Shown here piece after piece: positions 4,613-59,884 of a stretch of DNA of 64,000 nt. Both the position numbers and the translations under genes were made by a program. The notes below the pieces were generated by a model that was not told the DNA's origin, did no database searches, and saw only the letters and a program-made list of their open reading frames with translations. Within the stretch, counting starts at the first letter, position 1. Each line of letters begins with the position of its first letter. Source of the stretch: Octopus vulgaris (lineage: Eukaryota); assembly GCA_951406725.2 (NCBI GenBank), contig OX597822.1, forward strand, positions 33,728,001 through 33,792,000, given 5' to 3'.

Positions 4613-5027
4613 ATTTGAGAGAGAGGGAAAGAGAAAGAGAAAGAGAGAGAGACAGTTAGACAGAGAGGCGGTGCGAATAAAGAAACTTTGCACGAACAAT
4701 GCTTAGATACTGCTGCACTACAACGCAGCTGGTTATGAGGACACCACTCCCGTGAGGTTTTTGGCAAAGCTCGAGGCGACTCTCGAACCACAGTGACCAT
4801 CGACCCTCAAGAGTTGACCTCAACAGATTATTTTTGCTCTCAGAGTCAAGAGCTACCTTGAAAGGTTGGCGAATTCAGACAATAAAAGTGATCGGAGAAA
4901 TTTTTCTATGAGCACTGTACATTGCTCCTATAAACACGCTCCAAAACTGGAAAATGGTTGGGTGCGGATTATCAACACCGAATGAAATGTTGTGAAGGAA
5001 GCAAGCTCGTTTTTCTTTTAGATAGAC

Positions 5028-5088
<61 letters not shown>

Positions 5089-5365
5089 GGTAAAGACCCC
5101 CTTCGGTCATGAATGACAATGGGATTGCACCTAGAAAGTTACCCTCCTAGACACAAGTTCCGGGCAAGGTTGTTTATGGAAGACCAGCAGTCGCCCATGC
5201 ATACCAGCCTCCCCTCTCCACGCCACCAGTGTTATCCAAGGGAAAGACAAAGGTCGATACAGCTTGGCACCAGTGACGTCGCAACTCATTTCTACAGCTG
5301 AGTGAACTGGAGCAACGTGAAATAAAGTGCCTTGCTCAAGAACACAACACGCAGCCCCGTCCGGG

Positions 5366-13212: not shown

Positions 13213-13252
13213 ATGTTTCCGACGAAGAGCTCCGCTCGAAACGTTAAACCAT
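13213..13252 (+). ncRNA. Minimal type I hammerhead ribozyme (PLE type), core variant CCGACGA
   Basis: GTTT-CCGACGA-A-GAGC(TCC)GCTC-GAAA-CGTT-AAAC: stem I GTTT/AAAC, stem II GAGC/GCTC, palindromic AACGTT stem III. Confidence 0.65.
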
Positions 13253-13585
13253 CCTTCTTTCCTTCTTTCCTGAGCGTCCAATAATACTATATTTGTTCCA
13301 CGTTCTCGCGTTGTTGTGTTTTTTTTGTGCTTTCTTGTTTGGATTAACTATATATATTTATATAGATATATATATTAATAAATAAAAATAAAAAATATGC
13401 ATATATATAAACATATATGTACGTACCTACCTCTACATGTACATATACACGCATATATGAGTACAGGACACCAAAAAGTCGTCGAAAACAATGAGAAACG
13501 AAAACATAGACACAAACCAAAGGAACTGGACATTTTTTTAAACAACAAAAAAATAGAGTACAGGACAATTAACACAAAGAAAAAT

Positions 13586-13646
13586 CCCCTTCTTCAGTCG
13601 CTATGGTTTCATCTACTCTACGTTTCGAAGGTGAAAGCGAGACGTA
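13586..13646 (-). ncRNA. Putative non-circularly permuted hammerhead ribozyme
   Basis: Minus strand TACGTC-TCGCT-ttca-CCTTC-GAAACGTA-16 nt-AGCGA-CTGAAGA-AGGGG; all three stems can form around an intact core. Confidence 0.65.
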
Positions 13647-14420
13647 TCTTCGACAAGAAACTTTCCTTCCTGCGAAAAGCAAATCAATTAAAATTCTGAG
13701 ATCTTTTCGCAGAGGGGTAAAAAATGGTAACAAAAACAGGACAGTAACGACAGTACAAATTATAAACAGTAAAAGACAGGACAAGGAAAAACAAGATAAG
13801 AAGGGCTGTTAACGCCGAACGAAAAAAAGTATTGCGAACGCGGATTTTTTTGTGAACGACGAGCGGAGCAAAAAGAATTGTCGTCCATACCTCGAGAGGG
13901 TAAGGGTAGAAAGACAGTAGCGGAAGTCTCGTCGCGGGTCAACGACGGGAGGGGGGGGGAGGAGCAAGAGAAAGGGAGAGAAGAAGGGGAATGGTTGTGA
14001 GGAAACCATGAAGAATGAAGAGGGTAAGAGAGAGAGAGTGAAGAATGAGAGAGAGGAAGAGACAAGTTAAGTAGAGGAAAAGGAAATCAAAGAATGAAGG
14101 CTGAGAAAGGGATGGGACAGAAAGGTTAAGAGTGCGCATCAAAGTTAATATCAAGAACAAAACTTAATATAAAGAACAATCTTACTTAAAAAGGGATGCG
14201 TGCGTTTCGTCATATAATATATTAATAAATAAAAATAAAAAATATGCATATATATAAACATATATGTACGTACCTACCTCTACATGTACATATATACGCA
14301 TATATGAGTACAGGACGCCAAAAAGTCGTCGAACACAATGAGAAACGAAAACATAGACACAAACCAAAGGAACTGGACATTTTTTTAAACAACAAAAAAT
14401 AGAGTACAGGACAATTATAA

Positions 14421-21186: not shown

Positions 21187-21910
21187 GGAGAATTCGCAAA
21201 AAAACAAAACACGAAAACAGGTGGTGTAGACAACAAACAGATGTATTAGTTTAACGCTCGGGAAGTGAAAAAGTAACGTTTCGAGCCTACGCTCTTCCAC
21301 AGAAAGGAACCCAGAAAGAAACAAGGAAAGAAAATAAAGAATGTGTAGTGGCTAGCGATCTATCATGGTGAAATATAATATAAATAATATATATATATAT
21401 GCTTTCACACACACACACACACGCACACACACATGCATACATTGGTACAGGACGTCACCGACAGTAAACACCATGAAATACGAAGACAAATGAGGGCAAT
21501 ACGCAAACAACGAGAGAAAAAATGGAAAACACGACAAGTAACATACAGAACGACCCTTTATCAGTTGTCAGCTCTCTATCTACTCCTCACTTCGAGCATA
21601 TGTGTATATGTATGTATGTATGTATGTTTTCGTTTGGTTTCCTTGCATGTCTCCACTGTCCTGTTTTGCTTCCGACTTCGACCCTCCATAAATCCAAATT
21701 TTTATTTTGGTACTTATGGAAACAACTGTCTTCGAAGACTCATATTGTCGTTCAGTGTTGGAAATGATGAGTAGATAGACAGCCGGCGACTGATGAAGGG
21801 TCGTTCTTTATGTTACTTGTCCTGTTTTCCATTTGTTTCTCTCGTTGTTTGCGTATCGAACTCATTTGTTTTCGTATTTTATCTAGTCTACTGTCGATGA
21901 CGTCCTGTAC
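21180..21910. mobile_element. Penelope-like pseudo-LTR fragments with a 140-bp inverted repeat (21445-21585 / 21769-21910) and hammerhead-like motifs
   Basis: Reverse-complement match; degenerate type I core CTGTGGA-A-GAGC(GTAG)GCTC-GAAACGTT at 21275-21306 minus; permuted cores. Confidence 0.6.
21740..21800 (+). ncRNA. Second, partly degenerate copy of the permuted hammerhead motif
   Basis: TCATA-TTGTCG-ttca-GTGTTG-GAAATGA-16 nt-CGGCGA-CTGATGA-AGGG; stems I and III pair, stem II closing pair broken. Confidence 0.55.
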
Positions 21911-21921
21911 TTATACGTGCT

Positions 21922-57857: not shown

Positions 57858-58620
57858 GCAGTAGCCCAACATGTCGTGTATGTCAACAACAAAATGAAAC
57901 CATTGAACATGTTGTCTCCAAGTGCAGTCTTCTAGCGCCTACAGAGTATCTCAACAGGCATGATAGAGCTGCACAATATATTCACTGGGTAATTTGCAAA
58001 AACCTGGATTTGCCCCATGAAAAAAACTGGTGGGAACACAAACACCTCCAGTGCTTGAAAATGACCACATCTCACTCTTCTGGAACTTCACCATTCAAAC
58101 TGACAGAAAGATAGATACAAATAGGCCAGACATATTGAAATACTTCAGACAAAGAACATGCCTCCTCATTGATATGACTGTCCCAATCGATATAAACGTA
58201 TCTGTCAAGACCTACCAAAAACTGAGCAAATATAAAGATCTTGAAATAGAAATCAGCAAAATGTGGAACCTAGAGACTAAAACAATACCTGTTGTCATAG
58301 GTGCCCTGGGAATGATAGCGAAAGGGGCTGATTGCTACCTAACTCAGATACCAGGAAACCTCAAAATGGCAGAAATTCAAAAGATAGTGCTCATGGGAAC
58401 TGCTCATATCCTACGCAAAATACTTTCTATGTAATCTCAAGGTTTAAAACAAAGAATTTTTTTTATTAGACATTCACTAGAACAACACAAAAAAAAAAAC
58501 AACAAATATATGGCACGCTAGGCATAACAACAACGTGAACTTCCAACCTGTTGTCTCTTGAGGTCTCTGGGTGAGACTTGGAGCCAACTTGTACAAATAT
58601 AAAGCAAAAGTCAAACATAG
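57857..58620 (+). mobile_element. 5'-truncated R4/Dong-like LINE, family 1
   Basis: GSSPTCRVCQQQNETIEHVVSKC, RPD, IPVVIGALG...AHILRKILSM* (stop 58434), 3' UTR then (TAA)n. Confidence 0.88.
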
Positions 58621-58635
58621 AATAATAATAATAAT

Positions 58636-58696
<61 letters not shown>

Positions 58697-59884
58697 GTAG
58701 TCCAGTACAGTTTTAACATCATTAACTGGAACCTTACGGAACTCCAACGCTTGGACAGGAAGACAAGAAAGTTACTGACATCCAGGAGCATGCACCACCC
58801 TAAGGCAGATGTAGACCGCTTGTACCTACCTAGAAGCAGCGGGGGGAGAGGAATGATGCAATTGGAGCTGTGCTATAAGACCTCTACTGTAGGAATGAAC
58901 AGGTACCTATCTAGTACAAAAGACTGGATGATGCGACTTGTGTGTGAACACGAATGCAGCAAAAAGCTGCATTCTATTGTCAAGGAAGCTTATAAGTTCG
59001 AAAGGGAACTAGGCATTAACCTTGAATCAGGTGAAGAGCCAGAAACCACTGCTACCAAGCAAGCAAAGCGAATCAGGCAGACTGCAAAAAAGAATGGGCA
59101 GAATCAAATTGAGAGGCGGTGGAGCCAGAAGCCCCTGCATGGACAATACATTCTCCGAAGCCAAAATGCTGATGTAGACCAAGCAACAACCCATCAGTGG
59201 CTGAAGAGTTCTGGATTGAAAGCAGAGACTGAAGGCTTCATAATGGCAGCACAAGATCAAAGCTTGTTTACCAGAAATTACCAGGCTAACGTTCTCCGAA
59301 ACGGTACTGACCCTAAATGCAGATTCTGTGACACATTTGACGAAACAATAGACCATCTCGTTTCGGGATGTCCTGTGCTGACACCAAACGAATACAAAAA
59401 TCGCCACGATAGGGTAGGACAGTATATACATTGGAAGATATGTAAACACTACAAATCCGACACTCCTGCTAACTGGTATGAACACCATCCTCAGCCAGTT
59501 GTTGAAGGTAAAGATGTCACCATCCTCTGGGATTTTCCAGTCAACACTGACAGAACGATCAAGGCTAATCGACCAGACATAATTGTTAAAGACAGGGAAG
59601 AAAATACCTGCAGACTAATAGAAGTAAGCGTCCCCACTGATAAAAATGTATCTGTCAAGGAATTTGACAAACTTAGTAAATATAAGGACCTGGAAATCGA
59701 AATACAGAGGATGTGGAATCTTAAAACAAAAACTGTTCCTGTTATTGTAGGTGCCCTAGGTATGATAAAAAAGGGATGTCAGAAACACCTAGACAATATC
59801 CCTGGAAAACCATGTCTCAAGGAAATCCAAAAGATTGTGCTAACAAGTACTGCCCACATCCTTAGAAAAACCCTATCAATGTAA
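58697..59884 (+). CDS. C-terminal ~395 aa of an R4-clade retrotransposon ORF (RT thumb, CCHC knuckle, PD-(D/E)xK endonuclease); no native start
   Basis: RLYLPRSSGGRG, KPLHGQY, CRFCDTFDETIDHLVSGC, RHD, RPDIIV...LIEVSVP...KLSKY; the ORF's first 42 codons are UTR/(TAA)n read-through. Confidence 0.85.
   Translation, partial: VVQYSFNIINWNLTELQRLDRKTRKLLTSRSMHHPKADVDRLYLPRSSGGRGMMQLELCYKTSTVGMNRYLSSTKDWMMRLVCEHECSKKLHSIVKEAYKFERELGINLESGEEPETTATKQAKRIRQTAKKNGQNQIERRWSQKPLHGQYILRSQNADVDQATTHQWLKSSGLKAETEGFIMAAQDQSLFTRNYQANVLRNGTDPKCRFCDTFDETIDHLVSGCPVLTPNEYKNRHDRVGQYIHWKICKHYKSDTPANWYEHHPQPVVEGKDVTILWDFPVNTDRTIKANRPDIIVKDREENTCRLIEVSVPTDKNVSVKEFDKLSKYKDLEIEIQRMWNLKTKTVPVIVGALGMIKKGCQKHLDNIPGKPCLKEIQKIVLTSTAHILRKTLSM

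Follow-up and report, generated by a model that had tools for sequence, protein, structure and literature searches.

Does the 64-kb stretch of octopus DNA analysed here (the window, animal DNA with abundant microsatellites) encode a self-cleaving RNA of the hammerhead class, how is that RNA wired, and what kind of element carries it? An earlier note had singled out 21740-21800 (+), 21553-21598 (-) and 13586-13646 (-), whose letters stand in the genome exactly as it gave them, and had read them as copies of a permuted hammerhead. The permutation holds, the order being cut site (S), GAAA (G) and CUGANGA (C). The wiring proposed there does not: the 5' strand of stem II lies upstream, and the setting of the motif in a putative Penelope-like tail had been overlooked. 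We consider it likely, judging from the sequence, that the motif in the copies called A and B1 is a self-cleaving hammerhead with a split core, and that the element whose 3' tail carries it is Penelope-like, probably of Naiad type.

Eckert 2023 (PMC10085705) lists six possible block orders and assumes that CUGANGA and its adjacent pairs are inseparable and that no long insertion next to CUGANGA is possible. In the available text of that paper, two non-circularly permuted hammerheads are described, SGC (HRIMA-1) and CSG, both of which cleave in vitro. SGC was found almost only in metatranscriptomes and CSG only in metagenomes (two sequences), while the genomes of known organisms contained neither, one GCS candidate being the exception for the non-circular forms. 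Tandem duplication is discussed there as a source of circular permutation. Core insertions in the available part of Perreault 2011 (PMC3088659) amount to only 1-2 nt, and a 2026 bioRxiv preprint on retrozymes (10.64898/2026.07.22.740005), as far as its accessible part goes, searched with type I models only. In the full-text literature covered (subscription journals lay largely outside the search) we found no SGC or CSG hammerhead in animals or Naiads and no helix between A9 and G10.1, and the term type-SGC appeared in one paper only.

Predicted layout of the intact copy

Copy A is encoded on the reverse strand and has the following parts.

13586-13717 (-): copy A, predicted intact split-core hammerhead
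13717-13713/13590-13586 (-): helix X, 5 bp
13712-13670 (-): hairpin H, 10 bp, directly behind the 5' strand of X
13669-13665/13631-13627 (-): stem II, directly behind H, starting with G10.1-C11.1
13661-13657/13610-13606 (-): interaction helix Ib/Ia, 5 bp
13646-13642/13623-13619 (-): stem III
13640-13636/13602-13598 (-): stem I
13597-13591 (-): core CUGANGA
13641 (-): end of the GUC after which the cut is predicted

Read from 5' to 3', X5' is followed by hairpin H, the 5' strand of stem II, Ib, the 3' strand of stem III with UH, the 3' strand of stem I, a linker of 4-5 nt, the 3' strand of stem II, GAAA, the 5' strand of stem III, Ia, the 5' strand of stem I, CUGANGA and finally X3', with the three blocks in SGC order. 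Each of the six helices is perfect in A, where 35 of 35 pairs are Watson-Crick; stems I, II and III contribute five each, with A15.1-U16.1 and G10.1-C11.1 in place, and CUGANGA, GAAA and UH are intact in both A and B1. Stem II forms without a mismatch between its upstream 5' strand and the five bases that precede GAAA. Ib/Ia joins the stretch behind stem II 5' to the one in front of stem I 5', where the interaction helix of Eckert 2023 has its place. No unpaired base is left at the junctions A9/X, X/H and H/G10.1, and A9-X, X-H, H-G10.1 and C11.1-G12 would be the four strands of a perfect four-way junction. The predicted RNA is 125-132 nt long and pseudoknotted.

Much of this lay outside the earlier reading, in which X, H and the helix between stems I and II were missed. 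In B1 the RNA begins about 60 nt further upstream, at 21679, and the partner of stem II is found at 21720-21724. The linkers, described there as kept, also vary: the one between stems I and II has 4 nt in A versus 5 nt in B1, in register, position 21753 within it differs among copies, and the long one, given as a constant 16 nt, has 16 in A and 15 in B once the fifth pair of stem III is counted. The cut position proposed there, after the AUA at 21744, agrees with the predicted layout.

By its S-G-C order the RNA falls outside the canonical types I-III, which have the circular C-G-S order and a nested three-way junction. It resembles the SGC ribozymes of Eckert 2023 in block order, short stem I-II linker, interaction helix (5 bp in A, 6 bp in B1) and intact core. 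Unlike them, it has an interrupted block C, a stem II 5' strand upstream of the cut site and not within 1-2 nt after CUGANGA (where a weak 4-pair alternative is formally possible), and two helices, X and H, between A9 and G10.1. As its letters read, this RNA would be a new variant of the hammerhead class, outside types I-III and not strictly type SGC.

The after-core alternative is the stem II of the earlier note, formed with the G-run that follows the core. It would make the motif a plain type-SGC ribozyme with an extra A after A9, the upstream strand, X and H serving as an off-state or regulatory fold. A stem I-II linker of 4-5 nt and an extra base after A9 are both known from published SGC examples (PMC10085705, available text), the pairing, with 4 pairs of which 2 are G.U, can formally be drawn in A and in the majority letters of family B, and one chelicerate Naiad tail resembles a true SGC. 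We nevertheless hold this to be unlikely: in either family all 5 pairs of the upstream stem II are Watson-Crick, three of them changed on both sides between the families, and the stacking energy of this stem in A is -8.7 versus -4.1 kcal/mol for the after-core pairing, whose strand is also claimed by X (-11.5 kcal/mol). B1 can offer only three G.U pairs and a mismatch after its core, and in the eight non-cephalopod split-core tails seen in the available part of the published Naiad set, the after-core bases give no G10.1 stem with the strand before GAAA.

Chance expectation and folding

A short S-G-C descriptor (core, GAAA and stems I and III of at least 4 bp each) had 115 matches in 3146 dinucleotide shuffles, i.e., 0.037 expected per window. 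The full-layout descriptor had none in the same number of shuffles, and its single match in the window is copy A; B1 fails it in its strict form. When the S-G-C part was held fixed and the 114 nt upstream were shuffled, a layout of the quality of A was never obtained in 200,000 trials, and loose thresholds were passed in 3,124 of 200,000. Among the 150 of 331 Rfam matches listed for the whole window there were only microsatellites, and focused scans of both ribozyme places gave no hammerhead match even at E 10. To our knowledge, the Rfam hammerhead models cover only nested circular permutations. Mere chance complementarity in a decayed repeat, for which the failure of B1 and the Rfam result might speak, is already largely refuted by the two shuffle tests and by the majority letters that restore lost pairs (see below), and we give it next to no credence. 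Two degenerate-pattern scans of metagenome contigs had 0 matches.

Fold predictions for A and for B1 each contain helices X and H. They dominate the nested-only ensemble of A, with probabilities of 0.70-1.0 (0.70-0.98 for X), and the after-core stem II has a probability of 0.00, its strand being occupied by X. Stems I, II and III reach 0.03-0.26 in the same ensemble, but they cross each other as a pseudoknot, and nested-only folding cannot judge such helices. The overall folding z-scores are only -0.8 and -1.1.

Decayed copies and the letters of family B

The second region contains a copy, B1, in which every part of the layout can be placed.

21679-21803 (+): B1, whole split-core hammerhead (predicted), decayed
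21679-21685 (+): helix X 5' strand, pairing with 21797-21803 (7 of 7 Watson-Crick)
21686-21719 (+): hairpin H, of which the genome copy forms 7 of 8 outer pairs and 5 of 6 inner ones
21720-21724 (+): stem II 5' strand; the G10.1 position, 21720, is A in the genome copy
21726-21731 (+): interaction helix strand Ib, pairing with 21777-21782 (6 of 6)
21739-21750 (+): block S, i.e., stem III 3' strand, AUA and stem I 3' strand
21742-21744 (+): AUA triplet, predicted cut after 21744; stem I 3' strand at 21745-21750
21756-21768 (+): block G, with stem II 3' at 21756-21760, GAAA at 21761-21764 and stem III 5' to 21768
21777-21782 (+): interaction helix strand Ia
21784-21803 (+): split block C, with stem I 5' at 21784-21789, CUGAUGA at 21790-21796 and X3' at 21797-21803

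B1 keeps X, Ib/Ia and most of H, has two G.U pairs in stem I and has lost G10.1-C11.1 and one pair of stem III, i.e., the genome copy itself does not have the complete stems of the hammerhead class. In the neighbouring inverted copy, B2, both G8 and A15.1 are lost and everything 5' of block G is missing. The earlier note had described both copies in 21553-21800 as decayed, and rightly so; they are probably dead, A being a candidate live copy. A further helix, 21775-21782/21804-21811, was considered and dropped: despite 7 of 8 pairs it reaches only -2.0 kcal/mol, and 21726-21731 is the better partner of 21777-21782.

We compared 21430-21915 with 4 of the 24 public runs listed, three of contigs and one of RNA. 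Family B is high-copy, with 4,861-5,288 contigs matched per run in three runs. Its majority letters are per-position and unphased, were taken from the 40 of 177 differences listed, and derive from contigs selected by 80% likeness to B1. In run X3 they are G at 21720 (93% of depth) and C at 21760 (90%), which restores G10.1-C11.1. Those at 21722 (93%) and 21758 (94%) complete stem II, those at 21786 (98%) and 21788 (99%) repair stem I, and the one at 21768 (85%) repairs stem III. For B2, the majority letter at 21559 (89% of depth) restores G8, and that at 21574, in Ia, reaches 98%. With the majority letters, stems II, III and I are fully paired (5, 5 and 6 pairs) and X keeps 7 pairs, one of them G.U.

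Counted by eye, A and the B majority differ by 10 two-sided changes (three each in stems I, II and III, one in X) without a broken pair in any of these four helices, and H and Ib/Ia keep their pairing with unrelated sequence. This bears out two claims made earlier, that the families differ by compensatory stem changes and that the structure is under selection; when the family letters were put to the use proposed there, they did restore stems and core. Loose ends of the matched sequences point to subfamilies of B in which the core is followed by other letters, with no partner strand for these in view. At position 21713, the letter that closes one pair of H is in the minority (20-43%) in the three contig runs and in the majority (63%) only in the RNA run.

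The RNA run has 665 reads of 12.9 million on the B region, from both strands, none of them 99% alike, and 82% of them continue into other sequence. They are passive transcription of the copies and uninformative on cleavage; no pile-up of read ends was found over 21430-21915, ordinary RNA-seq not being built to show such cuts. A real fold that does not cut, for instance a hammerhead-derived scaffold for the reverse transcriptase of the element in which the junction has disabled catalysis, would agree with that result, and the literature searched holds no cleavage assay of a natural hammerhead with helices between A9 and G10.1. Such a scaffold seems to us rather unlikely, given how poorly RNA-seq of this kind is suited to showing cuts and given that, in the available Naiad tails, CUGANGA, GAAA, A15.1-U16.1, G10.1-C11.1 and UH are retained from ctenophore to cephalopod with the helices free to vary.

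Anatomy of the carrier elements

The copies sit in the following repeat units.

21600-21920 (+): 5'-truncated retroelement tail with B1, ending in (TA)n; boundaries approximate
21445-21598 (-): copy B2, inverted arm, further truncated, blocks G and C only
13366-14211 (-): unit carrying copy A, 846 bp, without recognisable reading frame
14212-14417 (-): the 3' end of the A unit repeated in tandem, truncated on its 5' side, pseudo-LTR-like, 206 bp, 97.6% identical to 13366-13571

B1 and B2 belong to homologous inverted arms (21761-21910 versus 21593-21445, 87% identity over 150 nt) that both run outward into microsatellites, and B1 matches copy A at 80% across 55 nt. The 846-bp unit has a pyrimidine-rich 5' part and sits behind a near-identical pseudo-LTR. 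It is a candidate non-autonomous or deleted Penelope-like element and, with its intact predicted ribozyme, might be a young non-autonomous one. The tandem copy begins downstream of the ribozyme and lacks the motif. Penelope-like elements are described in the available text of Craig 2021 (PMC8557442) as having truncated arms in inverted orientation, partial tandem copies and (TA)n targets. The window copies have all three, i.e., 5'-truncated tandem and inverted copies forming pseudo-LTRs and ends in TA-rich (A and B1) or TG/TA-rich (B2) microsatellite, so that their anatomy fits this group, although the (TA)n bias, typical of Naiads, is a weak test here because the window itself is so rich in microsatellites.

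With the Naiads (PMC8557442, available text) the copies share the (TA)n targets, the inverted truncated arm, the partial tandem and the predicted ribozyme layout; unlike them, they have no reading frame. A Naiad-type frame (N-terminal GIY-YIG, CxC, DKA and RT) is absent beside the copies, which, being truncated, need none. A motif scan of the window found no Naiad frame, Pfam found no PLE domain in the frames neighbouring the copies, and the two families had no sequence match to the octopus Naiad tails in the available part of the published set. The copies are probably of Naiad type. One neighbouring frame was considered as a Naiad and dropped, having its endonuclease at the C terminus and a DKT motif (Hydra-like).

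Around the ribozyme of both families, a 7-nt motif recurs at 21658, 21819 and 21902 (+) and at 13782, 13742, 13566, 13469, 14412, 14316 and 21453 (-), which is 10 of its 14 matches in the window; similar motifs occur in the Morbakka 2 Naiad tail (available part of the set), and the repeat is possibly a protein-binding signal. On the strand opposite to the A unit and about 120 nt past its end, 13215-13250 (+) resembles a minimal type I hammerhead of the dimer type whose core carries the change U4C. Elsewhere in the window, 58562-59884 (+) is an open frame of a non-LTR retroelement (440 codons) with a weak zf-RVT match.

The tandem and inverted arrangement bears on one more explanation, that blocks from two or three copies assemble a conventional hammerhead in trans, as the small dimeric hammerheads of Penelope-like elements do. 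Dimer cleavage by small hammerheads is known, and insertions of these elements are indeed tandem or inverted (PMC8557442, available text). All six helices are nevertheless provided by a single copy, stem III is not palindromic, and the tandem copy beside A is devoid of the motif, which makes cutting in trans very unlikely.

Predicted hammerhead forms in published Naiad tails

Naiads are reported to be without canonical hammerheads, and eight of them, among which an octopus and a squid family, were flagged as "HHR_half_core" with no structure given (Craig 2021, PMC8557442, available text). We surveyed File S5 of that paper in its accessible part by eye, using four spellings of CUGANGA and 24 record headers. 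The tails were unaligned and the survey yields no statistic. Motifs broken by line ends are missed (e.g., Hpol), and names follow the next header in the file, those of Morbakka 1, the crustacean, Pristionchus, Ascaris and the chelicerates being assigned by position only.

The split-core layout was recognised in 11 of the 54 consensus tails, from ctenophore to octopus and with unrelated helix sequences (Bfor, 3_Chem, Amil, Aacu, Anas, 1_Movir, 2_Movir, one crustacean, Obim, Ovul and Esco). Three of them are cephalopod, and with three Acropora and two Octopus tails as near-duplicates the 11 count as about 8 independent cases. Helix lengths, in bp, are as follows.

Beroe (Bfor): X 9, H 8, II 6, Ib/Ia 15, III 7, I only 2-3
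Clytia 3 (3_Chem): X 8, H 8, II 4, Ib/Ia 8, III 5, I 5
Three Acropora: X 8, H 6, II 6, Ib/Ia 10, III at least 9, I 6; one stem I mismatch in Aacu
Morbakka 1: X 5, H 8, II 6, Ib/Ia 8-9, III 4, I 5
Morbakka 2: X 5, H 9, II 5, Ib/Ia 8, III 6, I 4
Crustacean (EuTe or Ppla): X 5, H 8, II 6, Ib/Ia 5, III 10, I 5
Two Octopus (Obim, Ovul): II 6, III 5, I 6, Ib/Ia 5, X weak
Euprymna (Esco): stem II decayed

Seven nematode tails are, by eye, clean type-CSG hammerheads with an interaction helix (a Pristionchus, three Nippostrongylus, Haemonchus, Heligmosomoides and the record before Lpol, taken as Ascaris). One or two chelicerate tails have the SGC form, one with a 3-bp stem II and the other with a doubtful one. 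A CUGACGA core is common to four tails of the Darwinula type; neither these nor 2_Skow, which also has a core, could be fitted by eye to one of the three forms. In the part of the file covered, the last 600 nt had no core in 1_Chem, 2_Chem, 4_Chem, Sdum, Omin, Adux, Tama and the record before CGi, and the bivalve records had no 3'-tail core match, motifs split over lines being undetectable there. The remaining tails likewise had no core in the part covered. In place of a hammerhead core, the Clytia tails Naiad-1_Chem and Naiad-2_Chem have other conserved motifs in common, which look structured.

In the split-core, SGC and CSG forms seen in these Naiads, S, G, Ia, core, II 5' and Ib follow one another in the same circular order, so that tandem pseudo-LTRs would offer a simple route between them.

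Proposed mechanism and significance

In the split-core hammerhead that we favour, X would stack on H and stem II on the G.A pairs of the core, so that A9 and G10.1 would lie side by side as they do at a nick. Ib/Ia would tie stem I to stem II, as the corresponding helix does in type-SGC ribozymes. The core would be complete, and the RNA active, only after X3' had been transcribed, and it would then cut after UH, at 21744 in B1 and 13641 in A. The products would be held together by about 20 bp (X, II, Ib/Ia and III), for which a nicked complex or re-ligation is predicted. Its role may be to trim transcripts of the element that read through or run in tandem, cutting them at a fixed place that lies 175-275 nt before the 3' end of the element, as has been proposed for the canonical hammerheads of other Penelope-like elements (PMC8557442, available text).

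The motif resembles the canonical type I hammerheads in the pseudo-LTRs of Penelope/Poseidon, Neptune, Nematis and Hydra elements in lying near the 3' end of the element, and it shares with those of Penelope-like elements and animal non-LTR retrozymes the presumed role of cutting tandem transcripts. The type I ribozymes of both are nested, of CGS order and 50-100 nt long, whereas the window RNA is pseudoknotted and its products are predicted to stay paired.

We lean, with less assurance than for the motif itself, towards a broader reading in which a seventh natural hammerhead wiring, with a four-way junction opening the core, would be the working self-cleaving RNA of one branch of the Naiads, from ctenophores to cephalopods, with CSG in nematodes and SGC in chelicerates. 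Three permutants would thus coexist in one lineage, interconverted through tandem pseudo-LTRs, and the ribozyme would never have been lost. If this is true, the stated limit on hammerheads (six orders, block C indivisible) is broken, and non-circularly permuted hammerheads would for the first time be known from animal genomes and from a retroelement whose biology is known. The CSG class would grow from two metagenomic sequences by at least seven. Copy A is a ready 140-nt test construct, and the high-copy families provide thousands of natural variants for covariation. The broader reading would also answer the published puzzle of how Naiads, dominant in many invertebrate genomes, were said to thrive without hammerheads.
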